The notes under the pieces were generated by a model. The model was not told the origin of the DNA. It saw nothing but the letters and a program-made list of their open reading frames with translations, and did not search any database. Below, piece after piece: positions 13,032 through 64,000 of a stretch of DNA of 64,000 bases (position 1 is the stretch's first letter; each line of letters begins with the position of its first letter). The position numbers were made by a program, and so were the translations under genes. This DNA comes from Pseudomonadales bacterium (GTDB lineage: Bacteria > Pseudomonadota > Gammaproteobacteria > Pseudomonadales > Pseudohongiellaceae): positions 26,343 through 90,342 of the forward strand of contig DASWWP010000053.1 of the NCBI GenBank assembly GCA_036405915.1. The letters run 5' to 3'.

Positions 13032-13041
13032 GGAGACGAAC

Positions 13042-27260: not shown

Positions 27261-28307
27261 ATGAGAGAAGCATTTCACCAGTACGCCGTTGGCGGTCCGG
27301 CCTATATGCCGGAAGTGCTCCCGGCTGCGCGAAATCCGCGTATTGTCGTGCTGGGTGGCGGCAATGGCCTGTCGACGATGCTGCGCGGTTTGCGGCCGCT
27401 GTACTTTCCGTCGAGCATCAAGACGCCGACGATGGCCGAGCGCGAAGCGCTGACTGCGATCGTCACGGTGGCCGACGATGGCGGCAGCACCGGCCAGCTG
27501 CGCAAGGCCTACCCGATGCTCGCCCCGGGCGACATCCGTTCGTGCCTGCTCGCACTGGCGCGCAACCAGAACACGCTGCAGTCACTGTTCGACTTCCGCT
27601 TCAACGGCGACGTCGGCAGCCACAGCCTCGGCAACCTGATCCTGACCGCGCTCGCGCAGACGGAAGGCGATTTCACGCGCGCAATCGAACGTGCCAGCGA
27701 GCTGCTCGACGTCTGCGGACGCGTGTTGCCGGCGACGAGCGACAACGTCGCGCTGCAGGCGCTGTTCAGCGATGGTACCCAGCTGCGCGGCGAATCAGCG
27801 ATCACGGCAGCGCGCAAGAAGATCGAACGTGTCGAACTCGTGCCGAAGCGTGCCGCGGCGCTGCCGCAGGCGGCTTCCGCACTCGTGAACGCAGACACCA
27901 TCGTGCTCGGCCCCGGCAGCCTGTACACGAGCATCATCCCGACGCTGCTCGTGCCCGGCATCGCCGACGCGATCGCCTCGTCGAGAGCCCGCGTGATCCT
28001 CGTCATGAACCTGATGACCGAACCCGGCGAAACCGACACGTACACGCCGCTCGACTTCCTGCGCGCTCTGCGCCGGCATGCGCCGGGCGTCGTAGTCGAT
28101 TACGTGCTGCAGAACAGCGCGCCGATTCCAAGCCAGCAGCGCGCGCGTTACGACATCAGCGGCGCCACGCAAATCGTCCCGAGCTCGCAGAAATTGCCAG
28201 GCTTCGCCTGCCGCCCGGTGTTCCGTAACCTGTTCACCCACGAGCCGGGCGCGAAGATTCGTCACGATTCCGACAAGCTCGCGCGCGCTATCCTCGAACT
28301 CAGCTGA
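27261..28307 (+). CDS. YvcK / CofD-like (UPF0052, 2-phospho-L-lactate transferase superfamily) protein
   Basis: IVVLGGGNGLSTMLRGL, VTVADDGGSTGQLR, GDIRSCLLALA, GPGSLYTSIIPTLLVPG. Confidence 0.85.
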   Translation: MREAFHQYAVGGPAYMPEVLPAARNPRIVVLGGGNGLSTMLRGLRPLYFPSSIKTPTMAEREALTAIVTVADDGGSTGQLRKAYPMLAPGDIRSCLLALARNQNTLQSLFDFRFNGDVGSHSLGNLILTALAQTEGDFTRAIERASELLDVCGRVLPATSDNVALQALFSDGTQLRGESAITAARKKIERVELVPKRAAALPQAASALVNADTIVLGPGSLYTSIIPTLLVPGIADAIASSRARVILVMNLMTEPGETDTYTPLDFLRALRRHAPGVVVDYVLQNSAPIPSQQRARYDISGATQIVPSSQKLPGFACRPVFRNLFTHEPGAKIRHDSDKLARAILELS

Positions 28308-51535: not shown

Positions 51536-51667
51536 CCTCGCGCGCAGGCAACACCTGAACCTCGAGCGTGATCGCTCGACCAAAAATGCGTGGATCACCT
51601 CAGTGATCAGCAGAGCTCGACGCGAAATACTCGCGCCCCACCACAGGTTCACAAGGGGACACTCCAC

Positions 51668-52561
51668 ATGAAAGCTCTGTTTGCCGCTGGCCTTCTGTTC
51701 GCATCCGCTACCGCGCTCGCACAGCCCGTCGCATGGCCGTATGCCGAGGAAGAAGGCATCCACTGGATCGAAGGGAAGACCGTCAACATCACCTATTCGC
51801 ATACCGACGCACCGGCGACCGTGACGCAGGCGATGGCGAACCAGGTGCTGGCCGACGTCGAGGCGCGTTTGAACGGCCTCGGCATCTCGGGACTGAACGT
51901 AACGATCGGGCGCCGTGACATCACGACGGCCTGTTCGTACCGCGAACGCAACTCGGTCCATATCTGCTGGGAACCGCGTGACGGCCGCCGCGCCGACTCG
52001 ATCAACACCGGTTACACCGACGGCAGCGAATTCTGGCGCGAAGGCCTCATCATCCTCGGCAACCAGGCCGACTGGACGGACCAGACGCGTCCGCTGTACC
52101 AGCAGGTGCAGCACTATCTGCTGCACATCCTCGGCTTCGCCCATCCGGAACGCGAACCCGATCGCGCCATTTCCGTCATCAACAACAACTCGCTGGACCT
52201 GACCCAGCTCGACATCGACGGCCTGCGCACGATGTACGGCGGCGGCCGCTGCGCGTTGCGGTATGAATCCAACGGCACCGTGCGCGTCCCGTTCGTGATG
52301 TACCAGGGCAGCGCCTACACCGCGCGTCTGCAGCACGACGGCGGCCGTGGCCTGACGATCGTGCCGGGCAGCCTCGGCCGCTACGGCAACGCCAGCTTCA
52401 ACGTCAGCAAGCCGATTCCGACTACGCCGTGCCACGGCCTTTCGATCGACGGAAGCGGCGAATTCCATGTTCCCGAAGTATGGATCGGCGGGCAGTTGCG
52501 CTGGGCCACGCTGCGGATGGCGAACGGCGGATTCACCGTCACGAATTCGGGCGTGAAATAA
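51668..52561 (+). CDS. Secreted matrixin-like (metzincin-like) protein with HYxxHxxGxxH motif, copy 1
   Basis: Part of ORF 51590..52561. Signal peptide MKALFAAGLLFASATALAQP. IHWIEGKTVNITYS, QHYLLHILGFAHP, LDIDGLRTMYG. Unassigned ~110-aa C-terminal domain. Confidence 0.6.
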   Translation: MKALFAAGLLFASATALAQPVAWPYAEEEGIHWIEGKTVNITYSHTDAPATVTQAMANQVLADVEARLNGLGISGLNVTIGRRDITTACSYRERNSVHICWEPRDGRRADSINTGYTDGSEFWREGLIILGNQADWTDQTRPLYQQVQHYLLHILGFAHPEREPDRAISVINNNSLDLTQLDIDGLRTMYGGGRCALRYESNGTVRVPFVMYQGSAYTARLQHDGGRGLTIVPGSLGRYGNASFNVSKPIPTTPCHGLSIDGSGEFHVPEVWIGGQLRWATLRMANGGFTVTNSGVK

Positions 52562-52619
52562 CGCGCCGCGCCGTACCGGAATCCATACTCACAACAAACT
52601 ACATATGCGGGGATCCATC

Positions 52620-53474
52620 ATGAAATTGTCAGCCTCCTGTTTATTCGCAGCAGCAACGCTCGTGTCCGGCATCGCGTTCGCGCAGCCGGCGCCCTACTCG
52701 GCCCAGGAACGCATCCACTGGATCGATGGCCAAACGGTGACGATCACGTACTCGCCCGCCGGCGCGCCGGCGCAGGTATCGAGCGCAGCGGCAGCCAAGG
52801 TGCTTGCCGACATCGAGGCGAAATTCGACAGCCTCGGCATCGCCGGCCTCGACGTCGCGATCGGCAACCGCGAAGTCGCGAATGGCTGTGCCGGCGTGGG
52901 CCGCAATACCGTGCACATCTGCTGGGAGCCGCGCACCGGCACGACGGCAGACGCACGCAACACCGGCAATACCGACGGTTCGGTGTTCTGGCGCGAAGGC
53001 ACGATCATCCTGTCTTCGTCGACGACGTGGACCGAAGCATCTGTATACGCGACGCTTATGCACTACATGCTGCACGTGCTCGGCTTCGGCCATCCGGTGG
53101 GGGACTCCGTGCAGAACGGCGCGGCAGACCTGACGGCGCTCGACATCAGCGGCCTGCAGACGATGTATGGCGCCGGCTCCTGCGCGCTGACCTATGACGC
53201 GACCCTGCGCCAGGTGGAAATTCCGTTCGTGAAATATCGCGGCGGCACGTATACCGCGCGGCTGCAGCACAATGGCGGCAACGACTTCACGATCGTGCCT
53301 GGCAGCATTGGCATGCTGAATTCGGCGAACATGCCGACTTCGCGCTGCCATGGCCTCGCGATCGACGCCAACAACGACCTGTACATCCCGCAGGTGAACG
53401 TCGGTAACAGCCTGTTCTGGGCCAACCTGCGATTCGAGAATGGCCGCCTGACGCTGACCGGCCGCGGCCAGTAA
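52620..53474 (+). CDS. Secreted matrixin-like (metzincin-like) protein with HYxxHxxGxxH motif, copy 2
   Basis: Part of ORF 52605..53474. Signal peptide MKLSASCLFAAATLVSGIAFAQP. IHWIDGQTVTITYS, MHYMLHVLGFGHP, LDISGLQTMYG. Collinear with copy 1. Confidence 0.6.
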   Translation: MKLSASCLFAAATLVSGIAFAQPAPYSAQERIHWIDGQTVTITYSPAGAPAQVSSAAAAKVLADIEAKFDSLGIAGLDVAIGNREVANGCAGVGRNTVHICWEPRTGTTADARNTGNTDGSVFWREGTIILSSSTTWTEASVYATLMHYMLHVLGFGHPVGDSVQNGAADLTALDISGLQTMYGAGSCALTYDATLRQVEIPFVKYRGGTYTARLQHNGGNDFTIVPGSIGMLNSANMPTSRCHGLAIDANNDLYIPQVNVGNSLFWANLRFENGRLTLTGRGQ

Positions 53475-53550: not shown

Positions 53551-53979
53551 TCAGGCCCTTTTGATTGCCGCCCAGAACGTCGCGCGCACGAGCGTGTGCC
53601 CGGGCCGGCTTTCGATCCGGAATTCATCGGCCATGCGGTTGATGCCGGGCAGGCCGAGGCCTGGATCGCCCGAGCTCGAGTAGCCGGCGAGCATCGCCTC
53701 GTTCAGGTCGGCGATGCCGGGGCCCTCGTCCCATGCCACGATGCTGAGTCCCGCGCGCGAGCCATTCGAACAGAAGCCGAGCCGGATCTCGCCGGTTTTC
53801 GCGTACGTGAGGATGTTGCGTGCGAGTTCGGAGATGGCGGTCGTGACCATCAGCACGCGCGGGGCGGGAAATTCGAGTTGCAGCGCAAGCGCCCTGCCTT
53901 CGGCGCGCGCCTGTGCGATCACGTCGACGCTGCCGGGTTCCTCGAGGCGGAAACGGGTGAGCGTCTGCAAATCCGTCAT
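53551..53979 (-). CDS. Orphan RsbT-type serine kinase (HATPase_c_2) paralogue
   Basis: TAISELARNILTYAKTGEI, DEGPGIADL, GYSSSGDPGLGLPGINRMADEF. About half the positions match the operon-encoded RsbT at 58872..59351 by eye. Confidence 0.8.
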   Translation of the reverse strand: MTDLQTLTRFRLEEPGSVDVIAQARAEGRALALQLEFPAPRVLMVTTAISELARNILTYAKTGEIRLGFCSNGSRAGLSIVAWDEGPGIADLNEAMLAGYSSSGDPGLGLPGINRMADEFRIESRPGHTLVRATFWAAIKRA

Positions 53980-54052: not shown

Positions 54053-57031
54053 TTACTGCGCGCGAATCACGGCGTCCTTGACGGTGCCGCCCACCGAGTA
54101 CAACAGTGCGGCGGCGCGCAGCGTCGTCGTGGCCCGCGCAGGGCTCGAGTAGAACGCTACACCATTCTTCACGTAGCTGACGACACCATTTTCCACGGTG
54201 ATACGTAACGTATCGCCTTCGTTGAACGTGGTGTCGGCCATGTACTTGCCGCTGTCACGCGCTTCGGCGATGTTGCCCTGCAGGCGCAGGCTGTAGGCAA
54301 GCGTGGCGCCGTCGGAGCTCAGGCCGATGTAACGTACCTTGTCTTCGACCGTCGCGCTGATCTGCATGGAGCCGTTGCCGTTCTCGATGCTCTGCGTTGC
54401 AACTGCCATCGCATCGGCGCAACCGTCGCAGCCGGCGCTCTTGCGCACGCGGCCTTCTTCGGCCGTCACGTTGATGAGGTTGCTCCAGGTCACCGCGCTG
54501 ACCGGCGTCGCGATCTGCGCGCCGGCGATGCCGCTGCCCGTCGAGTACAACGCCACGTCGCCGCGCAGTACGGCAGCCGGTGCCGCGGTGCTGGTGTAGA
54601 ACACCGTGCCGTTCTTCGCGTAATTCACCTTGCCGCCGTCCACAGTGATACGGAACACATCGCCAGCGACGAAGGTCGTATCCCACTTGTACACGCCGTT
54701 TTCACGCACTTCCACAGCGGTGCCCTGCAGGCGCAGTGCATAGTCGATGTCCAGTGCGGTCGGGCCGGTATTACGCGCGCCGAGGCCGATGAAGCGCAGG
54801 CTGTCTTCGACCGTGGCGGTGAACTCCAGGTAGCCGCGGCCTTCGATTTTCTGCATCGATACCGCGCCCGCGTCGGAACAACCGTCGCAACCGCTCATCT
54901 TGCGCACCCAGCCGTTCGCGTCGCCGAAGGTATTGACGGTTTCCGTCCACGCGATCGGGGCAGGCGTACCGGACAGCGGCGTGCCGGCCGTGATGGTGTA
55001 GTCGGGCGAAGTCGCGACGTTGCCGGCGGCATCGCGCGAGCGCACGCGGTAGTGGTAGACCTTACCCGGCGAGAGGCCGGCCAGTTCGACAGCGTGGTGC
55101 ATGTCGAACGTGGCGCTGATCGTCGTTACCCGCTCGTACGCGGTCGTCAGTCCGTACTCGACGCGCTGCTGTGCGGGTTCGTTCGTCGACCAGTTCACTT
55201 TCACGCTGCTCGAGCCCGTGTTCGTCGCGCGGATGTTCGTCAGCAGCGGCGCGGCCAGGTCCTCACCACCGACGTTCGGCAGCAGGCCCGGCGTCGTGAA
55301 GGTCTGGTTGGCCGAGTAGCTTGCATTGCCGTCCGCATCGGCCGACTGCACGCGGTAGTGGTACGTCGTGCTCGGCTTGAGACCCATCAGGATGTGGGCG
55401 TGCGTCGTGCCGGTCTTGGCGCCGAGCGAGGCCGTCAGGCCGTACGCGGTCGTCGTGCCGTATTCGATGCTGCCGTCGGTGACTTCGCTCGTCTGCCATG
55501 CAATCGCAGCGGCGTTGCTGGTGATCAGGCCGGCGCTGACGTTGCTGATCTGCGGCGGCGTTGCGTCGCCCGTTTTCGACGGCCACGTCGGCGCGGGAGC
55601 CGGAACAGGCAGTGTCGGAGTGGCTTCCGATCCTGGCGCGGGAGCCGGTGCCGGGGCGGGAGCCGTGATCGGCGCGCCGTTCGTCAGCAATTGCGACGGC
55701 ACTTTCACGAGGAAGGCGTCGAGGCGCGAGCCGCCCATGTTGCTGGTCCAGATGAAGTACTGGCCGGTGACGTCGAGGTTGCCCTTAGGCATGTTGTCGT
55801 AGTCGTCGGTCTTGCGGCTGTCGAGGTTCGTCATGACGGGCGCGACGACCAGCGTGCGGCCCGAGCCATCGAGCATGAAGCAGACGATTTCGTTCGATTC
55901 GCCAGCGTTGCGGCGGTTCGCGCTGCTGCCGCAGGAATACTGCGATGCCGGGCTCGCGTTCAATGCGTTCGTGTGCGTGACGTGGTTCGGCGCGCCGACG
56001 TTCCAGTCGGTGTTCGAATACGCGACTACACCGCTCAGCGTGCTCTTGTTGAAGTCCCAGACTTTCCAGGTGTTCGCTTTCGGCGCCCAGTTGTCGTTCG
56101 CCACCATGTAGCCGAAACCGAGGTCGGAATGGCCGCCGGCGCCGTCACTGTCGCGCAGCAGGCGTTCGCTGCCGGTCGCGAGGTCGATGATGCGGTTGTC
56201 TTCACCTTCGGCGCCGTCGACGTTTTCCTTGATCACGAGCCACTTGCCGCTCCTGTCGATCTGGCACTCGTCGTAGTCGCCCTTCTTCGGGAAGTACTGC
56301 AATTTGCCGGTGTCGGTTTCATAAGCCATGCAGCCCAGCGACGCGTAGGTCGTCGAGTCCTTGATCGTGGCCGAATGCACGCGGTCGTCGTTGCTCGAAT
56401 GGATCTGGAAAACGATGCGGTTCGCGCCGAGCTTGGCGGATACGTCGACGATGGTCTCGTACTGCTTCGTCATCACGTCATAGCGCAGGATCTTCGAGCC
56501 GGAGTGCAGGTAGATCTTGGTCGGTAGTGTCGCGCTGAAGTAATAGCCTTCGCCGCTGGCACCGGAATACGCCGTGTTCGAATCGAAAACGGGGCCGAGG
56601 TTCGTCAGTTGCTCGGTGACCTTGTTGTACTGCAGCAGCGTCAAACCGGCGCCGCCCTTGGTCTTGTTCAGCCCGATCATGATCAGCATCGTGTCCTTGC
56701 CGACATGGTTGTTGATGTTGCGCCAGTACGAATAGCCAATCGCGCTGACGCAGTCGGCGCCGCCGCAATCGGCGGCATTCGTCAGGCGCACGCCCTGCGT
56801 GTTGTAGGGCGCCGGGAACGTGAACTTGCCCTTGCTTGGAAGGAAGGAATTTATCTGCGACGGCGACAGCAGCGGCTCGACGACGTTGCTCAGCGTGGCT
56901 GGCAATTCGACGAATCCGCCGAGCACCTGGGACTGCGCTGCGACGGGAGCAAGGCTGAAGAGAAGCGAGAAAACTGATGGAACGAGCGTATGGGCGCGGA
57001 GGAGGCGCGCCGCCGGTGGAAACGAAAACAT
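54053..57031 (-). CDS. Large secreted multidomain protein: propeller-like N domain, Pro/Ala linker, two Fn3 domains, two LamG/concanavalin-like repeats
   Basis: 992 aa. Signal peptide (..APVAAQ|SQ). aa ~35-450 unassigned, beta-rich. APITAPAPAPAPAPG linker. Two Fn3 units (IEYGTTTAYG..TTYHYRVQSADADGN and VEYGLTTAYE..KVYHYRVRSRDAAGN). Two ~150-aa C-terminal repeats. Confidence 0.8.
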   Translation of the reverse strand: MFSFPPAARLLRAHTLVPSVFSLLFSLAPVAAQSQVLGGFVELPATLSNVVEPLLSPSQINSFLPSKGKFTFPAPYNTQGVRLTNAADCGGADCVSAIGYSYWRNINNHVGKDTMLIMIGLNKTKGGAGLTLLQYNKVTEQLTNLGPVFDSNTAYSGASGEGYYFSATLPTKIYLHSGSKILRYDVMTKQYETIVDVSAKLGANRIVFQIHSSNDDRVHSATIKDSTTYASLGCMAYETDTGKLQYFPKKGDYDECQIDRSGKWLVIKENVDGAEGEDNRIIDLATGSERLLRDSDGAGGHSDLGFGYMVANDNWAPKANTWKVWDFNKSTLSGVVAYSNTDWNVGAPNHVTHTNALNASPASQYSCGSSANRRNAGESNEIVCFMLDGSGRTLVVAPVMTNLDSRKTDDYDNMPKGNLDVTGQYFIWTSNMGGSRLDAFLVKVPSQLLTNGAPITAPAPAPAPAPGSEATPTLPVPAPAPTWPSKTGDATPPQISNVSAGLITSNAAAIAWQTSEVTDGSIEYGTTTAYGLTASLGAKTGTTHAHILMGLKPSTTYHYRVQSADADGNASYSANQTFTTPGLLPNVGGEDLAAPLLTNIRATNTGSSSVKVNWSTNEPAQQRVEYGLTTAYERVTTISATFDMHHAVELAGLSPGKVYHYRVRSRDAAGNVATSPDYTITAGTPLSGTPAPIAWTETVNTFGDANGWVRKMSGCDGCSDAGAVSMQKIEGRGYLEFTATVEDSLRFIGLGARNTGPTALDIDYALRLQGTAVEVRENGVYKWDTTFVAGDVFRITVDGGKVNYAKNGTVFYTSTAAPAAVLRGDVALYSTGSGIAGAQIATPVSAVTWSNLINVTAEEGRVRKSAGCDGCADAMAVATQSIENGNGSMQISATVEDKVRYIGLSSDGATLAYSLRLQGNIAEARDSGKYMADTTFNEGDTLRITVENGVVSYVKNGVAFYSSPARATTTLRAAALLYSVGGTVKDAVIRAQ
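54056..54955 (-). repeat. Internal tandem duplication encoding two ~150-aa domains, each with a GCDGC motif
   Basis: GWVRKMSGCDGCSDAGAVSMQKIE..ATVEDSLRFIGL..YALRLQG..FRITVDGGKVNYAKNGTVFY versus GRVRKSAGCDGCADAMAVATQSIE..ATVEDKVRYIGL..YSLRLQG..LRITVENGVVSYVKNGVAFY. Confidence 0.8.
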
Positions 57032-57181
57032 TGAAGAACCTCGGGGGCTTTTATAATCGGTGGTGTCGGGTGTTTTATTGCTCGCGAGGTATGCCCACCC
57101 CTGCTAGCGGGGCTTTTTATACTGGACACTTGAAACATATTTATGACGTGGATGTAACACAGTGGTAAAACACCGTCTGAT

Positions 57182-57202
57182 TGTGGCCACTTTGTGACCA
57201 CA
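57182..57202. promoter_or_regulatory. Near-perfect 9-3-9 inverted repeat TGTGGCCAC-TTT-GTGACCACA in the divergent control region
   Basis: Read directly. One mismatch. Sits between the divergent 992-aa gene and rsbR. Confidence 0.3.
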
Positions 57203-57522
57203 CTCACGTTACAAGACTGAGGTACAAAAGAGTGGGGAACCTTTGCCCGATCTGCTTGACGCGACGTGGCGTTTGGCGCCAGCAAAGGCCCTCCGGCAGG
57301 GGTTCTTGCAGGCCTTTCCCCGATGCCTTTTCGGGTATTCGCCTGATATAGCACAGGAAGGGACCCTAGTAGTTTGCCGCCCACACTGCGGTCGGTCCGG
57401 ATGGAAAATAACCCTAATGGCGCTACGGTATTGCCGTAGCAGGGTCCCGGCGGAACCGCAGGCGGGTTCAGGCAGCTTTCTGAAACCGGCAACAAGCAAA
57501 TTCAAAACAGGGTGATTGCGAT

Positions 57523-58497
57523 ATGAGAGACGACAAAGAAGGAAAACGCGGCCTGGCCCCCGTAAAGACGGCGCGGCGCGTAGGGCAGCGGCCACAGTAT
57601 CTGGCCAGTGAGGAGCTGTTGAGCCCGCCTGTCGATGAATCCTACATTGAAGTTCTGCGCGAACTCGTCGCTCACCTGCGCCAGAAGCGTACCGAACTGC
57701 GCGAGGAATGGGCCCGCCGCATCATGCAGGCGCGACTGTTGAAGGCGATGACCGAGGACGAGATCCTCGCCGAGTGTTCGGCCGTATACGACAACTACCT
57801 CGGTACGCTCGAAACCGGTTCGCTCGAAGCCCTCGAAGCCTACGCTCGCGACCTTTCCGAACGCATCATTCCGCGTGGCGTCGAAACGCATGAGGTACTC
57901 GGCATCGTACTGCTGCTGAGGGACGTACTCGCCCGCTCGCTGTTCGCGAAGTACGGCCACAACGAAAGCATCCTGTTCCGCGTACTCGACGCGTACGAAC
58001 CGGCTGCAAACAGGATCGCAAACACGGTGGCCGTCGGCTTCGTGCAGGAGCGCGAACGCGTCATCCGCCAGCAGCAGGAAGCCATTCGCGAACTGTCGAC
58101 TCCAGTATTGCCGGTACGCGAACGCCTGCTGATTCTTCCCATCATCGGCATCATCGATCCGCAGCGCGCGCGCCAGCTTACTGAACAGGTACTGCGCGGC
58201 ATCCGCGTGAACCGCGCACGCGTCGTCGTAATGGACCTCACCGGCGTACCGTCGGTCGACGCGGCCGTTGCAAACCATCTTGTCCAGACCGTGGAAGCCT
58301 CGCGCCTCGTCGGCGCGAACGTGATCGTGACGGGCCTGTCGCCCGAACTGTCGCAGACCCTCGTCACGATCGGCGTGGACCTCGGCAAGATGTTCACGGT
58401 GGGCGACCTCCAGGGCGGTATCGAAGAAGCCGAAAAACTCCTCGGCTACAAGGTCGTACCGATGAATCCCAAAAACGACTTCTCGTCGGTAGGCTAA
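57523..58497 (+). CDS. rsbR: RsbR-type stressosome sensor (N-terminal helical sensor domain + C-terminal STAS)
   Basis: ELSTPVLPVRERLLILPIIGIIDPQRARQLTEQVL, VVVMDLTGVPSVDAAVANHL, GANVIVTGLSPELSQTLV. Confidence 0.85.
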   Translation: MRDDKEGKRGLAPVKTARRVGQRPQYLASEELLSPPVDESYIEVLRELVAHLRQKRTELREEWARRIMQARLLKAMTEDEILAECSAVYDNYLGTLETGSLEALEAYARDLSERIIPRGVETHEVLGIVLLLRDVLARSLFAKYGHNESILFRVLDAYEPAANRIANTVAVGFVQERERVIRQQQEAIRELSTPVLPVRERLLILPIIGIIDPQRARQLTEQVLRGIRVNRARVVVMDLTGVPSVDAAVANHLVQTVEASRLVGANVIVTGLSPELSQTLVTIGVDLGKMFTVGDLQGGIEEAEKLLGYKVVPMNPKNDFSSVG

Positions 58498-58501
58498 GGC
58501 T

Positions 58502-58879
58502 GTGGAAATCCCAATTCTCAAACAGCGGGATTATCTGATCGCATCGGTGCAGTCCGTACTGACCGACGAGGATCTGGTGAATCTGCGCGACAAGCTTGTC
58601 CAGCAGGTGGGCCGCTACCGTTCCGACGGCGTGATCCTCGACGTAACCGGCATGGATGTAATCGATTCCTTCTCCGTGCGCACGCTTCGCGACCTTGCGC
58701 ACATGATTCGCCTGCGCGGCGCGACGACCGTGATCGTCGGCATCCAGCCCGAGGTTGCCTTTTCGATGATCCAGCTCGGCCTGCGCCTGAAAGACGTGCC
58801 GACCGCCCTGGATCTCGAGGAAGGCCTCGCGTATCTCGACCGCAAGAAAGGGAAAAGGACGCTGCCGCCGCATGAGTGA
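58502..58879 (+). CDS. rsbS: RsbS-type STAS-domain stressosome scaffold / antagonist
   Basis: GTG start. IPILKQRDYLIASVQSVLTDEDL, VILDVTGMDVIDSFSVRTL (conserved Ser), VIVGIQPEVAFSMIQLG. Confidence 0.85.
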   Translation: MEIPILKQRDYLIASVQSVLTDEDLVNLRDKLVQQVGRYRSDGVILDVTGMDVIDSFSVRTLRDLAHMIRLRGATTVIVGIQPEVAFSMIQLGLRLKDVPTALDLEEGLAYLDRKKGKRTLPPHE

Positions 58880-59351
58880 GAAACCACCCAGCCTGCCTTT
58901 CGGGTCAGGAGGCGCCGGTACGATTCCCGGCGGCAAGAACAGCCCCCGCGACGTGCGCGTAGAAGCACGGGTCACGATCAAGGCTGTCGAAGACATCGTG
59001 GAAGCACGGCAAAAAGGCCGCGCACTGGCGCAGGAGCTCGGGTTCTCGATGACCCAGTCCACGCTCGTCGCGACCGCCATTTCCGAGCTCGCACGCAACA
59101 TCGTGCTGTATGCGAAGACCGGCGAAATCATCCTCTCGCGCGTCAGCACGGATCATCACGTAGGCCTCATCATCATCGCCGCGGACAAAGGTCCCGGCAT
59201 AGCCAATATCCAGCATGCGCTGATGAGCGGTTATTCCTCGTCCGGCGGGCTTGGCCTCGGCCTTCCCGGCGTTCGGCAGATGGTCGACGAGTTCGACATC
59301 AAGAGCCGCCCGGGCGAAGGGACGCAGGTTACCGCGCTGATGTGGTTGTAA
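58872..59351 (+). CDS. rsbT: RsbT-type serine/threonine kinase
   Basis: Overlaps the rsbS end by 8 nt. TAISELARNIVLYAKTGEI, DKGPGIANI, GYSSSGGLGLGLPGVRQMVDEF. Confidence 0.88.
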   Translation: MSEKPPSLPFGSGGAGTIPGGKNSPRDVRVEARVTIKAVEDIVEARQKGRALAQELGFSMTQSTLVATAISELARNIVLYAKTGEIILSRVSTDHHVGLIIIAADKGPGIANIQHALMSGYSSSGGLGLGLPGVRQMVDEFDIKSRPGEGTQVTALMWL

Positions 59352-59379
59352 GGCGCGTGCGCGCGAAGGACGGCAGGGA

Positions 59380-59988
59380 ATGAAGAAGACCGGCATCGTG
59401 GAGTGGTCGGTGCGAGAACGCACGCTTCCCGGAGAGACCTATTCCGGCGACCGCTGCCTCGTGAAGGAAGTTTGGGAAGGCGTACTGATCGCCGTCATCG
59501 ACGGCATCGGGCACGGCGAAGAAGCTGCGAAGGCGGCCGACTGCGCGGTGGCCACGATCGAAGAGAACGCCGACCGCTCGTTTTCGCTGCTGCTGCAGAA
59601 ATGCCATGCGAACCTGCAGAAGACGCGCGGTGTCGTCATGAGCCTCGCGTACGTCGATGACCAGAGAACGATGACGTGGATGGGCGTCGGCAACGTGGAA
59701 GGCCGGCTTATCCGGCGCCGCATACAGTACTCGGACAAGACCGAGGCACTGCTGCTGCGCACCGGCGTCATCGGCGGCGATGCGGAGTTCACGCCGAGCT
59801 TCTACCCGCGAGGGCTCGCGCTCGTGCGTGGCGACCTGCTGATCATGGCGACCGATGGCATCAGGAGCGACTTCGACGTCGATGTCGACATCGCCTCGGG
59901 TCCCCGGCGGATCGCGGACGATATCATCGAAAACAAGTGCAAACCGAATGATGACGCACTGGTCTTCGTCGGCCGGTATACCGGATAG
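59380..59988 (+). CDS. rsbX: RsbX-like PP2C/SpoIIE-family phosphatase
   Basis: 202 aa. SGDRCLV, IAVIDGIGHGEEAA, LIMATDGI, DDALVFVGRY. Confidence 0.8.
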   Translation: MKKTGIVEWSVRERTLPGETYSGDRCLVKEVWEGVLIAVIDGIGHGEEAAKAADCAVATIEENADRSFSLLLQKCHANLQKTRGVVMSLAYVDDQRTMTWMGVGNVEGRLIRRRIQYSDKTEALLLRTGVIGGDAEFTPSFYPRGLALVRGDLLIMATDGIRSDFDVDVDIASGPRRIADDIIENKCKPNDDALVFVGRYTG

Positions 59989-59996
59989 AACCTGGG

Positions 59997-60932
59997 ATGG
60001 GGATCCAACTGAACGTGGCCGAGAACCTGAACGACTTTTCCAGCCAGTATCAGAAGATGCTGAAGAGATACCTGCTGGAGGGCGGCGAAGAATATTTGCA
60101 CGGCGCGTACGAGCTCGGGCGCAAGGCGCTGGGCGGCGGGCTGGGCCTGCTCGACATCACGTATGCACACCAGGCCGCATTGCCCGTGCTGCTGCAGAAT
60201 ACCGAAGACGACCGGTTCCTGCTGCTCGTGCGCGCAGCCAACCGCTTTCTCGACGAGACGCTGTCACCATTCGAAGTCTCGCGCCTGAGCAGCATGGATG
60301 CGAACTCCGCGCTGCGGCGCCTGTACGATGTGCTGGAAGAAGAAGCCAAGCGCATCGCGCACGTGCTTCATGACGATGCCTCGCAGCTGCTCGCGGTGGC
60401 CTACCTGGAACTCGCGGACATCGTGCGCACGTCGCCGGGCCCGGTGGCCGAACGCGTCGGCGTCGTCATCACGCACCTCGACGAGATACGCGAACAGATT
60501 CGCCGGCTGTCGCACGAACTGCGGCCGCTGATTCTCGACCAGCTTGGCCTCGTGCCGGCCCTGAACTTCCTCGCGAACGGCTTCACGAAGCGCTCGAGCC
60601 TCCAGATCGTGATCACAGGCGATACCGGCGGCCGCCTGCCGCAGGCCATCGAGACGGTGCTGTATCGCTGCGTGCAGGAGGCCCTGAACAACGTGAACCG
60701 CCATGCAAAGGCGACACGCGTGGACATCAAGGTGTGGGTCGAGGACGAATGCATCCACTGCGTCGTGCGCGACAACGGAGTTGGTTTTGAGGTACCCGAG
60801 GACCGGAAACGCATGTTCCGCGGCCTCGGTCTGGTAGGCATACATGAGCGCGTGGGTGCGCTCCATGGTGAATGCAAACTTTCATCCGCTCCTGGAGAGG
60901 GAACGGAACTGCAGGTGGTGATCCCGCTATGA
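59997..60932 (+). CDS. Soluble histidine kinase: RsbU_N-like N-terminal domain + HisKA_3 + HATPase_c
   Basis: N-terminus FSSQYQKMLKRYLLEGGEEYLHGAYELGRKAL...DITYAHQAALPVLL parallels my recollection of the RsbU N-terminal (RsbT-binding) domain. H-box RIAHVLHDDASQLL. N-box QEALNNVNRHA. G-box DNGVGF, GLGLVGIHERV. No TM segment. Confidence 0.8.
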   Translation: MGIQLNVAENLNDFSSQYQKMLKRYLLEGGEEYLHGAYELGRKALGGGLGLLDITYAHQAALPVLLQNTEDDRFLLLVRAANRFLDETLSPFEVSRLSSMDANSALRRLYDVLEEEAKRIAHVLHDDASQLLAVAYLELADIVRTSPGPVAERVGVVITHLDEIREQIRRLSHELRPLILDQLGLVPALNFLANGFTKRSSLQIVITGDTGGRLPQAIETVLYRCVQEALNNVNRHAKATRVDIKVWVEDECIHCVVRDNGVGFEVPEDRKRMFRGLGLVGIHERVGALHGECKLSSAPGEGTELQVVIPL

Positions 60933-61573
60933 ACGTAGACATGAAGAAACACATCGTACTTGCCGACGACCATTCCATGTTCCGCCAGGGCCTGGCCGCG
61001 CTTCTCGAACGGGAAGGCTTCCACGTCGTGGGCCAGGCCACCAACGGCCACGAAGCGATCCAGCTCGTGCAGCAGCACAAACCGCTGCTCGCGATCCTCG
61101 ACTTCGGCATGCCGCTGCTGAACGGCATCGACGCCGCGCGCGAGATCCACAAGCGCGCACCGGATACGCAGGTATTGCTCCTCACGATGTTCGAGGACGA
61201 TGCCTATGTGCTCGAGGCTCTGCGTGCCGGCATCCGTGGCTACGTGCTGAAGGCGCAGGCCGCGCGCGACCTGATCAATGCGATCAGCGAAATCCTGCGA
61301 GGTTCGATCTACCTCAGCCCCGGCATCTCCGAGGCGGTGGTGAAGGCCTACATGTCGAAGGACGAACAGCCCGCGGAAGTGCTGACCGATCGCGAACGCC
61401 AGGTGCTGCAGCTGATCGCCGAAGGGCATACGACGAAGAAGACGGCGTCGCTGCTCGACCTCAGCGTCAAGACCGCCGAGTCGCATCGCACGCGCATCAT
61501 GCAGAAGCTCGACATTCACGACACGGCGGGCCTCGTGCGCTACGCAATCCGCCGCGGCCTGATCAAGCCCTGA
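60929..61573 (+). CDS. NarL/FixJ (LuxR-type HTH) response regulator 1
   Basis: ATGA overlap with the kinase gene. LADDHSMFRQGL, ILDFGMP, LLLTMF, YVLK, LTDRERQVLQLIAEGHTTKKTA. Confidence 0.9.
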   Translation: MNVDMKKHIVLADDHSMFRQGLAALLEREGFHVVGQATNGHEAIQLVQQHKPLLAILDFGMPLLNGIDAAREIHKRAPDTQVLLLTMFEDDAYVLEALRAGIRGYVLKAQAARDLINAISEILRGSIYLSPGISEAVVKAYMSKDEQPAEVLTDRERQVLQLIAEGHTTKKTASLLDLSVKTAESHRTRIMQKLDIHDTAGLVRYAIRRGLIKP

Positions 61574-61610
61574 GGCGCAACACCATCCACCCGGGGCGGT
61601 CTTTGCCGAC

Positions 61611-62255
61611 ATGATACGGATTCTGCTGGCGGACGATCACGCGTTGTACCGCGAAGGACTGCGCCTGCTCCTCGAGCGGGCCGGCTCGTTCACGATCGTC
61701 GGCGAAGCAGCCGACGGCGGCGAAGCCGTGCGCCTCGCCTTCGAACTGCTGCCTGACGTGATCCTGCTGGACATCAGCATGCCGGTTTACAACGGCATCG
61801 AAGCGACGGCGCGGATCCGCAAGGCCTGGCCGCACGCCAAGATCGTGCTGCTATCTATGCATGAAGACGAAACGACGATCCTCGAAGCCCTGAAGGCCGG
61901 CGTGAACGGCTACGTGTTCAAGACGCAGACGGAGCGCGACCTCGTGCACACGATCGAAGTCGTCGCGGACGGCGCATTCTTCCTTGGCCCGAACATTCCG
62001 CACAGCGTGATCGACGCGCTGACGCACAATGCGTCGCATGTATCCGATGCGCTGACGGAGCGCGAACAGCAGATCGTCGCGCTGATCGCTGACGGGAAAA
62101 CCTCGCGTGAGATCGCGGAGATCCTTCACCTGAGCCCGAAAACCATCGAGTCGCACCGCGCGCGAATCATGCAGAAATTGAAGCTCCAGCAGACGACCCA
62201 GCTCGTCTGTTACGCCGTGCGCGCGCAGATGCAGCGTCTCGCACCTCTTCGTTAA
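61611..62255 (+). CDS. NarL/FixJ (LuxR-type HTH) response regulator 2
   Basis: LADDHALYREGL, LLDISMP, VLLSMH, YVFK, LTEREQQIVALIADGKTSREIA. Confidence 0.9.
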   Translation: MIRILLADDHALYREGLRLLLERAGSFTIVGEAADGGEAVRLAFELLPDVILLDISMPVYNGIEATARIRKAWPHAKIVLLSMHEDETTILEALKAGVNGYVFKTQTERDLVHTIEVVADGAFFLGPNIPHSVIDALTHNASHVSDALTEREQQIVALIADGKTSREIAEILHLSPKTIESHRARIMQKLKLQQTTQLVCYAVRAQMQRLAPLR

Positions 62256-62408
62256 CGAAGCGTTGCCTCGCTAGGGTCTTTTCCCCCGCCGCTCTCAGGC
62301 ACATTTCCGGGCTGAAAGCAGGCATTTCCCGCTGTGATGAGCTGCGTTACACGAGTACCTTTTCACCCGTTTCAGGGAATTCCTCAACAACAACTCAGGA
62401 GTGCTTTC

Positions 62409-63041
62409 ATGCGCATCATCCTTGCTGACGACCACACAATGTTCCGCCGCAGCCTCGCCCAACTCCTCGAGAGGGAAGGCTTTGAAATCATGGCGGAGGC
62501 TTCTGACGGGATGGAAACTGTCGCACTGGCCGCAAAACTCGACCCCGACGCCGTCGTATGCGACATGAACATGCCGCACCTCAACGGTGTCGAAGTAACC
62601 CGCGAACTGCAACGCCAGGGGCTGCGCGCGAAAACCGTGATCCTGACGATGTTCGAAGACGATGTCAGCGTACGTGAAGCACTGCGTGCCGGCGCCACCG
62701 GCTACGTCCTGAAGACCCAGGCCCCGACGGACCTCGTCCAGGCCCTGCGCGAACTCGCCGATGGCCATCGTTACCTGAGCCCCGGCATCACGAATTCCGT
62801 CGTCGACGCGTGCCTGCGCCGTAACGACGACGAGGACCAGGCCGACGCCCTGACCTCGCGCGAGCGCCAGATCCTGCAGCTCGTTGCCGAAGGCAACGCC
62901 ACGAAGGAAATCGCCCGCCTGCTCAATCTCACGATCAAGACCGTCGAATCGCATCGCAGCCGCCTGATGCGCAAGCTCGACACCGGCAACATCGCAGGCC
63001 TCGTACGCCACGCGGTGCGCCAGGGCATCATCCGTCCGTAA
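62409..63041 (+). CDS. NarL/FixJ (LuxR-type HTH) response regulator 3
   Basis: Part of ORF 62334..63041. AGGAG before ATG 62409. LADDHTMFRRSL, VCDMNMP, VILTMF, YVLK, LTSRERQILQLVAEGNATKEIA. Confidence 0.9.
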   Translation: MRIILADDHTMFRRSLAQLLEREGFEIMAEASDGMETVALAAKLDPDAVVCDMNMPHLNGVEVTRELQRQGLRAKTVILTMFEDDVSVREALRAGATGYVLKTQAPTDLVQALRELADGHRYLSPGITNSVVDACLRRNDDEDQADALTSRERQILQLVAEGNATKEIARLLNLTIKTVESHRSRLMRKLDTGNIAGLVRHAVRQGIIRP

Positions 63042-63172: not shown

Positions 63173-63205
63173 CCCTGCTGTGCAGTTCGCGGCAGGGCTT
63201 TTCTT
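63173..63205 (+). terminator. Rho-independent terminator-like hairpin downstream of response regulator 3
   Basis: 10-bp stem CCCTGCTGTG / CGCGGCAGGG (two G-U pairs), 5-nt loop, then CTTTTCTT. Confidence 0.55.
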
Positions 63206-63565: not shown

Positions 63566-63591
63566 GGAAAGGCGCGACAGCCGAAGCTGTC
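63566..63591 (-). terminator. UUCG-tetraloop hairpin overlapping the stop of the OmpR-type gene
   Basis: Minus strand reads TGACAGC-TTCG-GCTGTC-GCGCCTTTCC. The U-run is weak. Confidence 0.4.
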
Positions 63592-64000
63592 AGCGCTTGA
63601 TCCAGTCCAGCGCAATGTCGATGCGGTAGCCGATGTTGCGGACCGTGATGATGTGCCCACCGGTTGGATCGATCTTGCTGCGCAGGCGGCCGATGTGGAC
63701 ATCGACGGTGCGCGTGTTGATGTCGAGTTCCTTGTCATGCCCCCAGACGCGCTGCAGCAGCGTGTCGCGCGTGAGCACCCTGCCCTTCGCTTCGAGCAGC
63801 TCCTGTAGCAGTCTCGCTTCCTTGATCGTCAGGTTCACCGGGGCGCCGTTCACCGTCACCGCCCAGCGATCCAGGTCCATCTCGATGCCGCCTGCGCGCA
63901 GGATGCGCGGCGCCTTGCCGCCCTGGCGTCGCTGCAGGGACTTGATGCGCGCAAGCAGCTCTTCCATGTTGAAGGGGCTTATCAGGTAATCGTCGGCGCC
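63590..64000 (-). CDS. OmpR/PhoB-type response regulator, N-terminal receiver mostly outside the window
   Basis: Reading frame is open to the window edge (ADDYLISPFNMEELLARIKSLQRR). Winged-helix LTIKEARLLQELL, RDTLLQRVWG, RTVDVHIGRLRSKI, VRNIGYR. Confidence 0.88.
   Translation of the reverse strand, partial: GADDYLISPFNMEELLARIKSLQRRQGGKAPRILRAGGIEMDLDRWAVTVNGAPVNLTIKEARLLQELLEAKGRVLTRDTLLQRVWGHDKELDINTRTVDVHIGRLRSKIDPTGGHIITVRNIGYRIDIALDWIKR

Follow-up and report, generated by a model that had tools for sequence, protein, structure and literature searches.

The 64-kb window (the whole stretch of DNA that was analysed), from an uncultured Pseudomonadales genome, contains a tightly packed run of forward-strand genes (57523-63041) encoding RsbR, RsbS, RsbT, RsbX, a kinase with RsbU_N, HisKA_3 and HATPase domains and three NarL-type response regulators (RRs). 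These genes and the features around them are:

~21.2-51.5 kb of the window: exopolysaccharide (EPS) locus, just upstream of the operon
53551-53979, minus strand: rsbT2, second RsbT-like kinase (HATPase_c_2, 41.7 bits)
54053-57031, minus strand: secreted FN3/LamG-like protein, 992 aa (two FN3/Pur_ac_phosph_N repeats, Pfam)
57116-57208: cis-elements conserved between the divergent FN3/LamG and rsbR genes (alignment and motif scans, 8 loci)
57523-58497, plus strand: rsbR, stressosome co-antagonist (Pfam STAS, 52 bits; RsbRD_N, 23.5 bits, slightly below the Pfam cutoff of 24.3)
58502-58879, plus strand: rsbS, single-STAS antagonist (scaffold) (Pfam STAS)
58872-59351, plus strand: rsbT, GHKL serine/threonine switch kinase (Pfam HATPase_c, HATPase_c_2)
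59380-59988, plus strand: rsbX, PP2C feedback phosphatase (Pfam SpoIIE, 31.5 bits; PP2C_2)
59997-60932, plus strand: soluble histidine kinase (Pfam RsbU_N, HisKA_3, HATPase_c)
60929-61573, plus strand: RR1, NarL-type response regulator (Pfam REC and GerE)
61611-62255, plus strand: RR2, NarL-type response regulator (Pfam REC and GerE)
62409-63041, plus strand: RR3, NarL-type response regulator (Pfam REC and GerE)
63590-63967, minus strand: C-terminal part of an OmpR-family response regulator (Trans_reg_C, 84 bits), the gene exiting the window end

A first-pass annotation of this DNA had described four contiguous core genes followed by a histidine kinase in place of a sigma-B cascade, and all of its sequence-level statements were reproduced. 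The genes are separated by 4 nt (rsbR/rsbS), 28 nt (rsbT/rsbX) and 8 nt (rsbX/kinase), while rsbS shares its last 8 nt (58872-58879) with rsbT, as it had reported, subject to the RsbT start codon. This start is uncertain, the gene in the 91%-identical relative L004 having been called 16 codons shorter, and with the shorter start the overlap would vanish. A six-frame search of the window found no further STAS, PP2C or RsbU_N paralogue, and its scanned ORFs (all but one, at ~45.9-47.5 kb) include no sigma factor, RsbV or RsbW, unlike the Bacillus/Listeria system, in which all three are present.

On the basis of Pfam and PDB matches and conserved phospho-acceptor residues, all four stressosome proteins are identified as homologues of B. 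subtilis and L. monocytogenes RsbR, RsbS, RsbT and RsbX, and the STAS, HATPase_c_2, SpoIIE and HisKA_3 models fall on the core proteins and kinase as had been claimed. RsbR, whose residues 51-312 align with L. monocytogenes RsbR (E 8e-35), is predicted to consist of an N-terminal sensor domain of the non-haem-globin type and a C-terminal STAS domain. It retains T193 (ELSTPV), the counterpart of B. subtilis T171 and L. monocytogenes T175, whereas the second phospho-site of the Bacillus and Listeria proteins (B. subtilis T205, L. monocytogenes T209) is naturally replaced by Ala247, with Ala also found at this site in 29/34 relatives. RsbS matches its B. subtilis counterpart (6JHK, E 1.6e-24) and carries the conserved phospho-acceptor S56 in an IDSF motif. 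RsbT is ~50% identical to B. subtilis RsbT (an approximate value), with the N box (ELARN), G1 (DKGPGI) and G2 (GLGLGLPG) all intact. RsbX, a single-domain protein of 202 aa that lacks an N-terminal regulatory domain, contains the metal-binding motifs SGD, DGIGHG, TDG and NDD. Two differences in gene content and order set the locus apart: rsbX directly follows rsbT, unlike in Bacillus/Listeria, and there are one RsbR and two RsbT, as against several RsbR and one RsbT in Bacillus.

The kinase is built from an RsbU_N four-helix bundle (~residues 4-88), a linker helix, a HisKA_3 domain containing His125 (residues 118-178; 25.1 bits against a Pfam cutoff of 24) and an ATP-binding domain (HATPase_c, residues 219-311). 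No membrane segment was detected in it (highest 19-residue Kyte-Doolittle mean 1.28), in keeping with its earlier description as a TM-less HisKA_3/HATPase kinase. The core matches MctS, LiaS, UhpB and NarX in NCBIfam, and resembles DesK and VraS both in sequence (H-box with DxxxQ, N, G1, G2) and in fold, as Foldseek of the kinase model returned these two proteins; in a DesK alignment His125 falls on DesK His188, and the partners of the kinase are likewise REC and GerE proteins. The conservation of H125-D-x-x-x-Q130, N box, G1 and G2 makes the kinase look competent. DxxxQ is the phosphatase motif of HisKA_3 kinases, so that with D126-x-x-x-Q130 in the H-box the enzyme is probably bifunctional. 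While DesK/NarX/LiaS-type kinases are membrane sensors, this kinase is cytoplasmic and its sole input domain is a protein-docking bundle, no other sensor domain besides RsbU_N having been found by Pfam or AlphaFold. In the full-length AlphaFold model a single unbroken helix (residues 91-145) runs from the bundle into the H-box, with low pLDDT in the monomer at ~residues 100-130, as might be expected of a linker that needs a partner. This linker matches that of the AlphaFold2 dimer of a gammaproteobacterial 'NreB' (MBI3545564.1), in which a coiled coil connects bundle and kinase (Ho and Bradshaw, 2025, PMC12143880, Fig. 5E).

The resemblance of the kinase N-terminus to RsbU, first noted from the motif Y..ML.RYL....E..L..AYELGR.A.......DI...H (residues 18-58), holds at the profile level, and both sequence and model indicate a real RsbU_N domain. 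Pfam RsbU_N matches residues 17-94 (37.6 bits against a cutoff of 25.5, E 2.6e-9), and a profile built from 23 family N-domains matched only RsbU N-domain entries in the PDB (1W53, 2J6Y, 2J6Z, 2J70; best E 6e-5). The AlphaFold model of this domain (pLDDT 89.8) is a four-helix bundle for which the highest-probability Foldseek matches were RsbU N-domain structures (probability 0.99, TM 0.63-0.66 on target). For this small bundle the Foldseek E-values are poor (0.23), with comparable scores for the helical domains of neuroglobin and KaiA.

The effector shares with Bacillus/Listeria RsbU a docking domain bearing the RsbT-contact Glu, but for catalysis it has a HisKA_3 histidine kinase where RsbU has a PP2C phosphatase. 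In a comparison of the interface that omits bundle helix 4 (RsbU Ile74/Ile78), which makes up half of the known interface and is not alignable by sequence, the RsbT-binding residue Glu24 of RsbU (PMC12143880) aligns with kinase Glu31, invariant in 58 family members, and the positions of B. subtilis RsbT Arg19 and Arg23 are Arg in all RsbT compared. Counting against docking, the position of B. subtilis RsbT Asn24 is Ala in RsbT here, and RsbU Tyr28 is replaced by His35, a position that is mostly His across the family. Mutation of RsbU Tyr28 abolishes RsbT binding in Bacillus.

The three RRs noted earlier all pair REC with GerE. RR1 has Asp58 and the receiver residues DD, T and K, RR2 keeps Asp54, and RR3 (called as 210 aa) carries Asp52. 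RR1, which overlaps the kinase gene by 4 nt (ATGA, with its start set at 60929 per the gene calls), is likely the cognate partner of the kinase; few genes of the locus are as well conserved (97% identity in L005 vs 72% for the kinase). RR2 is missing in L004 and found in L005. A terminator-like hairpin lies 3' of RR3 (63173-63197).

These features suggest that released RsbT binds and activates the kinase, and most likely acts on it and its RRs rather than on a sigma factor. This wiring is strengthened by the related loci: among those with enough upstream DNA, whose kinases range down to 42% identity, rsbT lies directly upstream of the kinase in 37/37, of which 31 have full rsbRSTX, one a partial set (rsbS-T-X) and five rsbT alone. 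We give a probability of about 0.65 to the whole model, from stressosome through RsbT, RsbU_N kinase and RRs to FN3/LamG and EPS targets. In this model the STAS proteins RsbR and RsbS would build a stressosome that holds RsbT sequestered, and the N-terminal globin-like domain of RsbR would read the signal. RsbT would then phosphorylate RsbS Ser56 and RsbR Thr193 and be freed, with RsbX dephosphorylating both proteins to reset the complex. Free RsbT would dock on the dimeric RsbU_N bundle and adjoining linker helix, in place of an RsbU phosphatase, and since the linker runs straight into the His125 helix its binding may order or rotate the coiled coil, moving the kinase from a phosphatase state to autophosphorylation. 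The phosphoryl group would pass to the translationally coupled RR1, and probably to RR2 and RR3, which would alter transcription, the likeliest targets being the EPS locus nearby and the adjacent FN3/LamG gene together with rsbT2.

The sequence fixes no direction for the kinase switch, and the phosphatase motif of this probably bifunctional enzyme would also suit the opposite sign, with RsbT turning the kinase off or into phosphatase mode, so that the RRs would carry phosphate in the absence of stress and lose it when stress sets in. We consider this unlikely: when a coiled-coil linker becomes ordered it is usually the active dimer that is favoured, and in both RsbU_N systems that have been tested RsbT is described as acting on the effector, activating RsbU and reportedly controlling the diguanylate cyclase of Moorella (PMC12143880). 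In the latter, from Moorella thermoacetica (Quin 2012, per PMC12143880), MtR-MtS-MtT act with MtG (RsbU_N-GAF-GGDEF), likewise a non-phosphatase RsbU_N effector, providing a tested precedent for RsbU_N and RsbT controlling a different output enzyme. The output of that Gram-positive system is c-di-GMP synthesis, whereas here it is a predicted two-component phosphorelay to DNA-binding RRs.

RsbT2, noted before as a second RsbT, makes the activating partner of the kinase ambiguous. It is 55% identical to the operon copy, has intact N, G1 and G2 motifs and Arg at both RsbU-contact positions, and has no STAS partner; its gene follows that for FN3/LamG after 73 nt, with a conserved promoter region of the activator type upstream, and is found at the same place in L005. 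RsbT2 could therefore be the main kinase partner or, being co-transcribed with a candidate target gene, compete with RsbT for stressosome or kinase as a feedback loop. Either role appears quite unlikely: among the loci examined RsbT2 turned up in just two, and it evolves fast, its two copies being 48% identical vs 78-86% for RsbT between loci, whereas the operon rsbT accompanies the kinase in every one of the 37.

Signalling could instead be catalytic, by transient Ser/Thr phosphorylation of the kinase or an RR rather than by stable docking. The ATP-binding motifs are complete in RsbT and RsbT2, Heinz 2022 (PMC9237108) suggested, for systems without RsbU_N, that downstream sensor kinases are phosphorylated in an RsbT-dependent manner, and according to a 2016 Vibrio paper Moorella RsbT phosphorylates the cyclase of that species. 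However, a dedicated, well-conserved RsbU_N with its RsbT-contact Glu is hard to explain without docking, and RsbU activation does not require RsbT kinase activity, as the title of Kang et al. 1998 states, making this very unlikely. That the modules are merely neighbours, with the stressosome output elsewhere (e.g. RsbU/RsbV/RsbW-sigma or c-di-GMP) and the kinase sensing something else, is conceivable in a 64-kb view of the genome, as gene adjacency is not interaction, but highly improbable given that the rsbT-kinase pairing extends to loci without rsbR, rsbS and rsbX, that no second sensor domain is present in the kinase, and that the sole RsbU_N function reported in PMC12143880 is dimerisation and RsbT binding.

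The preferred wiring, from RsbT to an RsbU_N kinase, is not new, having been described from comparative genomics. RsbU_N kinases in proteobacterial stressosome operons go back to Pane-Farre 2005 (cited in Heinz 2022, PMC9237108), Heinz 2022 (Fig. 3) reports RsbU_N in downstream proteins of alpha-, beta- and gamma-proteobacteria, and an equivalent RsbT-kinase model has been proposed (PMC9237108, PMC12143880). The first-pass description of such modules as barely characterised is fair, although the literature sets out this architecture in more explicit terms than that description implied. By description, the published gammaproteobacterial cases are alike in having rsbRSTX and then the RsbU_N kinase; the survey in PMC9237108 concerns globin-coupled (haem) RsbR only, whereas RsbR here is of the Bacillus/Listeria-like RsbRD_N type. 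The present set is a solid example of this known, uncharacterised architecture, and the accounts of RsbU_N kinases in PMC9237108 and PMC12143880 do not describe conserved EPS, FN3/LamG or OmpR links, multiple NarL RRs, RsbT2 or rsbT-only variants. V. vulnificus and V. brasiliensis likewise have a Gram-negative rsbRSTX followed by two-component genes (D1/D2) and no sigma factor, but in Vibrio RsbR senses O2 through a haem globin and the downstream kinase lacks RsbU_N. The absence of a detected RsbT-D1 interaction in V. vulnificus (PMC9237108) counts against the proposed wiring; with a docking domain present, RsbT-kinase coupling is more directly testable here than in Vibrio.

The EPS genes, FN3/LamG gene and OmpR-type regulator are kept beside the operon in a subclade, down to 47% kinase identity. 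The EPS linkage noted previously stands, and from its position the EPS locus may be controlled by the RRs. The FN3/LamG gene, divergent from rsbR and encoding a protein with a hydrophobic N-terminus, recurs beside the operon and is a candidate for regulation by it; Laminin_G_3-bearing homologues adjoin the operon in L005, L008, L010, L018, L020, L022, L027, L029 and L032. The intergenic region between the two genes contains TATAAA (minus strand), a direct repeat TGTAAC-N6-GTAA[A/C] and a CRP-like site TGTGA-N6-TCAC[A/G], the latter in 6/8 loci, with TGTGAN6TCAC occurring once in the 64-kb window (0.31 expected). The OmpR-family regulator, for which the window contains no dedicated kinase, has full REC and Trans_reg_C counterparts adjoining the operon in L004, L008, L009 and L010, and tblastn matches to its C-terminal part adjoin the operon in 9 further loci.

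The eight genes of the operon (window 57523-63041, plus strand) are as follows, the genes having been taken from an ORF listing combined with a codon-position GC filter and the domains from Pfam.

Genes of the operon
57523-58497, plus strand: rsbR; STAS (52 bits) and RsbRD_N (23.5 bits, slightly below the 24.3 cutoff)
58502-58879, plus strand: rsbS; a single STAS domain
58872-59351, plus strand: rsbT; HATPase_c / HATPase_c_2
59380-59988, plus strand: rsbX; SpoIIE (PP2C, 31.5 bits), a single-domain protein of 202 aa
59997-60932, plus strand: histidine kinase; RsbU_N, HisKA_3 and HATPase_c
60929-61573, plus strand: response regulator RR1; REC and GerE
61611-62255, plus strand: response regulator RR2; REC and GerE
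62409-63041, plus strand: response regulator RR3; REC and GerE

The gene string of the first-pass annotation, a stressosome module leading into an RsbU_N kinase, is thereby reproduced. Two gene pairs overlap, rsbS/rsbT by 8 nt and kinase/RR1 by 4 nt; the remaining gaps as far as RR2 measure 4-37 nt, RR3 is preceded by 153 nt, and a GC-rich hairpin (10 bp, with a T run) lies 3' of RR3 (63173-63197).

Judged by sequence, the RsbR-RsbS-RsbT-RsbX module is complete. Its RsbR and RsbS would assemble into the ~1.8 MDa pseudo-icosahedral stressosome core that sequesters RsbT. Residues 51-312 of the window RsbR align with the L. monocytogenes RsbR of the cryo-EM structures (E 8e-35), and the haem-globin RsbR of Vibrio matches it in the STAS part only, so the sensor domain is assigned to the Bacillus/Listeria type. 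RsbR Thr193 (in ELSTPV) occupies the position of Listeria T175 and Bacillus T171 and is Thr in 34/34 relatives. The second phospho-site (B. subtilis T205, L. monocytogenes T209) is Ala247 in the window (~58261-58263), and of the 34 relatives 29 likewise have Ala there, 3 have Ser and 1 has Glu; the stressosome family of the window and its relatives thus appears to have a single RsbR phospho-threonine. The second site is not known to be universal among stressosomes, so Ala247 is a variant feature and not a ground for exclusion from them. RsbS matches B. subtilis RsbS (6JHK, E 1.6e-24), with Ser56 of its IDSF motif aligned to the IDSF Ser of the B. subtilis (S59) and Listeria (S56) proteins, and the metal-binding motifs of RsbX are present. 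The N, G1 and G2 ATP-binding motifs are intact both in RsbT and in RsbT2, a second RsbT-like protein encoded at 53551-53979 on the minus strand. Neither protein matched the PDB sequence set at E <= 1e-3, and the RsbT identity therefore rests on Pfam, on context and on a B. subtilis RsbT sequence, to which the operon protein is ~50% identical.

The module had been described as lacking a sigma-B cascade, and within the window this holds. Pfam/NCBIfam scans of the 64 kb, which covered almost every other sizeable ORF apart from one at ~45.9-47.5 kb, found no sigma factor, RsbU phosphatase, RsbV or RsbW among the ORFs scanned, and a six-frame search of the window with its own proteins gave no further STAS, PP2C or RsbU_N, the sole extra match being RsbT2.

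Four independent lines, from profile searches and structure models, indicate that the kinase N-terminus is a genuine RsbU_N domain, as its resemblance to the N-domain of RsbU had first suggested. The Pfam model (PF08673) covers kinase residues 17-94 at 37.6 bits against a curated cutoff of 25.5. A profile of 23 family N-domains (alignment A2), searched against the whole PDB, retrieved B. subtilis RsbU N-domain entries only (1W53, 2J70, 2J6Z and 2J6Y; E 6e-5 to 1e-3; next match E 0.65); with the whole kinase as query against PDB sequences these structures were not reached, the family profile alone having reached them. On the same alignment AlphaFold2 predicts a four-helix bundle (helices 2-28, 31-46, 51-66 and 71-111; pLDDT 89.8), whose top-probability Foldseek matches are the same RsbU entries (probability 0.99, TM 0.63-0.66 on target), at weak E-values (0.23) and with globin and KaiA helical domains scoring similarly. 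The full-length model (pLDDT 81) reproduces the bundle (4-28, 31-46, 51-66 and 71-88), from which one long helix (91-145) continues to carry the H-box. Model confidence is low at about residues 100-130, as would be expected of a linker that needs its dimer partner.

The rest of the protein appears to be a standard HisKA_3 kinase with the phospho-accepting His and the N, G1 and G2 boxes intact (HisKA_3 25.1 bits against a cutoff of 24; HATPase_c 48.6 bits). His125 aligns with DesK His188; all of 58 homologues share H125, D126, N232, D259, G261 and G263, and at least 90% keep Q130. We take D126-Q130 to be a DxxxQ motif as in NarX-type bifunctional kinases. Foldseek with the full-length model returned kinase cores only (DesK and VraS, E 1e-10) and no match to the N-domain. 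No hydrophobic segment was found in the kinase, in keeping with its earlier description as TM-less.

Homologues of the kinase number 1746 at E <= 1e-10; PF08673, PF07730 and PF02518 occur on nearly all of the best 120 of these, and some bear the NCBI name 'phosphatase RsbU N-terminal domain-containing protein'. The closest named relatives come from Pseudohongiellaceae and from unclassified Gammaproteobacteria MAGs. For comparison of gene order, the window proteins were mapped by tblastn onto 3 genome loci, 5 contigs from exact protein look-up and 80 metagenome loci. Among the 37 non-redundant loci with more than 2.7 kb of sequence 5' of the kinase, rsbR-rsbS-rsbT-rsbX lies directly upstream in 31, rsbT alone in 5 and rsbS-T-X in 1; rsbT accompanies the kinase in all 37, including those where other stressosome genes are missing from the locus, and this linkage is the strongest available evidence for a direct relationship between RsbT and the kinase, lending indirect support to their predicted physical binding. 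The rsbT-only loci (L013, L018, L020, L027 and L029; confirmed by ORF listing for L029 and L013) run from rsbT through the RsbU_N kinase to the regulators (e.g. L029:9408-10933), with no rsbR, rsbS or rsbX in the 4-21 kb of DNA fetched per locus, so that RsbT either functions there with no stressosome nearby or depends on a core whose genes are located elsewhere. Two apparent departures from this arrangement were rejected. A fusion of RsbT to the kinase in L013 was ruled out by translation, which gives stops between the genes. In L043, a single metagenome contig, RsbR appeared to lie beside the kinase as a new architecture; the rsbR gene breaks off immediately behind ELSTPV and continues into the rsbX 3' end (L043:275-1106), which reflects a natural deletion that removed the stressosome core or else an error of assembly.

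Passages in Ho & Bradshaw (2025; PMC12143880) place the RsbT/RsbU contact at RsbU E24, Y28, I74 and I78 and at RsbT R19, R23 and N24. In the alignment with 1W53, E24 falls on Glu31, which is invariant in the kinase family, Y28 falls on His35, where His is the majority residue and Tyr is not conserved, and I74 and I78 lie outside the alignable part. On the RsbT side, aligned with the B. subtilis sequence, the positions we take to be R19 and R23 are Arg in every RsbT and RsbT2 examined, and the presumed N24 position is Ala or variable. The numbering of the B. subtilis sequence agrees with the residues named in PMC12143880. With E24, R19 and R23 kept, Y28 and N24 changed and I74/I78 unalignable, the predicted interface appears partly conserved, which is supportive, not decisive.

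Sequence comparison and structure prediction show what the domains are, which catalytic residues are present, how the N-domain and kinase fold, how the operon is built and that its linkage is conserved; all protein-protein and protein-DNA steps, the sign of the effect and the targets we infer. Most likely is the docking mechanism that earlier publications proposed for this architecture. Stress would free RsbT from the RsbR/RsbS core, and the freed RsbT would dock on the kinase, at its linker and its dimeric RsbU_N bundle, where an ordered coiled coil would alter the kinase/phosphatase balance at His125. RR1, probably together with RR2 and RR3, would then pass the signal to DNA, and RsbX would reset the core. 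The same components could operate with the opposite sign, RsbT favouring the phosphatase state of the kinase; RsbT could act catalytically and not by docking; or RsbT2 could be the true or a competing partner of the kinase. Mere adjacency, with the true output of the stressosome lying elsewhere, is unlikely given the 37/37 linkage of rsbT to the kinase and a kinase that has no other input domain.

On the output side of the proposed docking mechanism, RR1, RR2 and RR3 each have the receiver DD, D, T/S and K residues all present in addition to a GerE domain. Loci with at least 3 kb downstream of the kinase carry one NarL-type regulator in 18 cases, two in 14 and three in 7. RR1 is among the most conserved genes, at 97% in the related locus L005 (kinase 72%) and 84% in L008 (kinase 60%). 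Some relatives have an extra single-STAS gene among the regulator genes downstream of the kinase (L010:9743-10150 and L016 around 3109), 40-44% identical to RsbS.

The first-pass annotation had linked the module to an exopolysaccharide (EPS) locus. Housekeeping genes fill window 1-21 kb, and the EPS locus occupies 21.2-51.5 kb with the following contents.

Components of the EPS locus (21.2-51.5 kb)
PEP-CTERM-like EPS export protein, 135 bits against the TIGR03027 cutoff of 180
PEP-CTERM-like EPS outer-membrane protein, 42 bits against the TIGR03016 cutoff of 91
Wzz-like protein, AAA_31-type ATPase (Wzc-like), priming sugar transferase and Wzy_C protein
Flippase, GT1/GT2/GT4 transferases and two asparagine-synthase paralogues
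Deacetylase, FemAB-like acyltransferase and heparinase II/III-like lyase
UDP-glucose dehydrogenase and epimerase

No exosortase was found among the ORFs scanned (23-51 kb by Pfam only), and the locus is probably a generic Wzx/Wzy-type one with PEP-CTERM-like elements. In the subclade nearest the window (kinase identity at least 47%) the operon adjoins a gene for a secreted FN3/LamG protein (~900-1040 aa, mostly divergent), sugar-nucleotide and glycosyltransferase genes matching window 44.6-51.5 kb by tblastn, and an OmpR-family regulator gene without a kinase of its own. The EPS linkage is absent in relatives more distant than this closest subclade, within which retention of the neighbourhood argues that the linkage is conserved and not accidental. 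In the window the OmpR-family gene (63590-63967, minus strand) extends past the window end and has no adjacent kinase; its counterparts are convergent downstream in some loci and lie on the same strand directly upstream of rsbR in others.

The FN3/LamG gene of the window (54053-57031, minus strand) is divergent from rsbR and encodes a secreted protein of 992 aa, in which a ~450-aa N-terminal region without a family match is followed by a Pro/Ala-rich linker, two FN3 repeats and two C-terminal repeats of ~150 aa that are Laminin_G_3 in homologues. The gene for RsbT2, an orphan and the second RsbT already noted in the first reading, lies 73 nt downstream on the same strand; the protein has a Pfam match and is 55% identical to operon RsbT. 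Its counterpart at the same position was found in L005 only, the two copies being 48% identical, and RsbT2 appears to evolve far faster than operon RsbT.

The divergent FN3/LamG-rsbR intergenic region, 491 bp in the window, was compared in eight loci (window, L004, L005, L008, L018, L020, L027 and L029), and its elements fall within 57116-57208. The layout, conserved in the eight loci, includes a minus-strand TATAAA situated ~85 nt 5' of the FN3/LamG start. A direct repeat of ~12 bp, TGTAAC-N6-GTAA[A/C] (57153-57170), is inferred to resemble the sites that OmpR/PhoB-type regulators bind in tandem. The third element, a palindrome of CRP type, TGTGA-N6-TCAC[A/G] (57193-57208), is present in 6/8 loci and perfect in three, two of them low-GC rsbT-only loci; with one occurrence in the 64 kb window against 0.31 expected, the weight of the site comes from its positional conservation and not from its count. 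The layout suggests control by an OmpR/PhoB-type regulator together with CRP/Vfr, and also that the FN3/LamG-rsbT2 transcript may depend on an activator and may plausibly be an output of the system. A search of 53.4-63.7 kb for sigma-70 consensus promoters found none, and an Rfam scan of 53.4-64 kb gave nothing above any family threshold. The conserved TGGAC...TGCAAC block does not fit a sigma-54 promoter, since its GG-GC spacing is wrong. Upstream of rsbR, a separate block at 57290-57400 is highly conserved between the window and L004 and partly in L005 (e.g. GACCCTAGTAGTTTGC) and may be a leader or 5' UTR element.

Taken jointly, the operon could form the centre of a more extensive regulatory unit that is conserved in uncultured Pseudomonadales and in gammaproteobacteria related to them. 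RsbT would serve as a diffusible protein that activates the kinase, whether or not a stressosome is present, given the five loci that retain rsbT and the kinase only; the kinase would signal to up to three NarL-type regulators; the orphan OmpR-type regulator and CRP would act at the divergent promoter; the targets would be the FN3/LamG and EPS genes; and RsbT2, co-transcribed with a target, would close a feedback loop. We give this composite roughly one chance in five. If it is true, matrix or biofilm production would be the first physiological output to be defined for a stressosome of a Gram-negative bacterium, and the kinase would be the first example of a histidine kinase that a GHKL partner protein activates.

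Passages in Heinz et al. (2022; PMC9237108) describe the four-gene rsbRSTX module without sigB as widespread and report, in some alpha-, beta- and gamma-proteobacteria, a post-rsbX protein whose RsbU_N-like N-terminus is presented as 'strongly suggest[ing]' stressosome-dependent signalling, and the portion of Ho & Bradshaw (2025; PMC12143880) dealing with one such RsbU_N kinase gives an AlphaFold2 dimer with a coiled-coil linker. Full-text literature searches found no experimental study of an RsbU_N histidine kinase. In V. vulnificus, the best-studied Gram-negative case, an RsbT-effector interaction could not be shown, according to a passage in the former paper (PMC9237108), whereas the window effector keeps the RsbU_N docking domain, fused to a standard kinase. 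The architecture is therefore already described and the window locus is a well-supported further example that leaves the current picture unchanged; the observation of the first-pass annotation is confirmed, and its wiring interpretation is supported, with RsbT binding itself a predicted step. The present analysis adds counts for the linkage of rsbT to the kinase, the loci with rsbT alone, the loss of the second RsbR phospho-site across the family, an output through several regulators, and the conserved EPS, FN3/LamG and OmpR neighbourhood with its promoter elements. An RsbU_N kinase with a His/Asp phosphorylation readout offers the cleanest test case for whether the linker-ordering mechanism proposed for RsbU operates in histidine kinases, and the same system is the cleanest place to ask what such stressosomes control, with the EPS genes, FN3/LamG protein, OmpR regulator and CRP-like site supplied as candidate targets and promoter elements. 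The locus would not surprise a specialist and is a good, concrete handle on what Gram-negative stressosomes control.

Several further features of the window were observed. Tandem genes at 51590-52561 and 52605-53474 (plus strand) encode paralogous secreted proteins, 50% identical and without a Pfam family. Each has a motif of metzincin type, HxxxHxxGxxH, with Tyr in place of the catalytic Glu (HYLLHILGFAH / HYMLHVLGFGH), and none of the related loci retained a tblastn match to either protein. Inside the EPS locus, flanked by the genes for the priming sugar transferase and Wzy-like polymerase, lies a CofD-family (2-phospho-L-lactate transferase-like) gene (27261-28307, plus strand; 309 bits), an unusual EPS companion. 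Between the UDP-glucose dehydrogenase and a GT2 gene, at ~45.9-47.5 kb (plus strand) within ORF 45365-47518, whose listed start is too far upstream, is a gene for a probable secreted protein that starts MKIVRTVLALYL and whose repeats, judged by eye, resemble a right-handed beta-helix (pectate-lyase-like). Finally, a cluster at 10352-13503 (plus strand), unrelated to the stressosome-kinase finding, encodes a rhodanese-like protein, an MbnH/MauG-family di-haem peroxidase (260 bits, below cutoff), a metallophosphoesterase-like protein and a SoxA-like cytochrome fragment.
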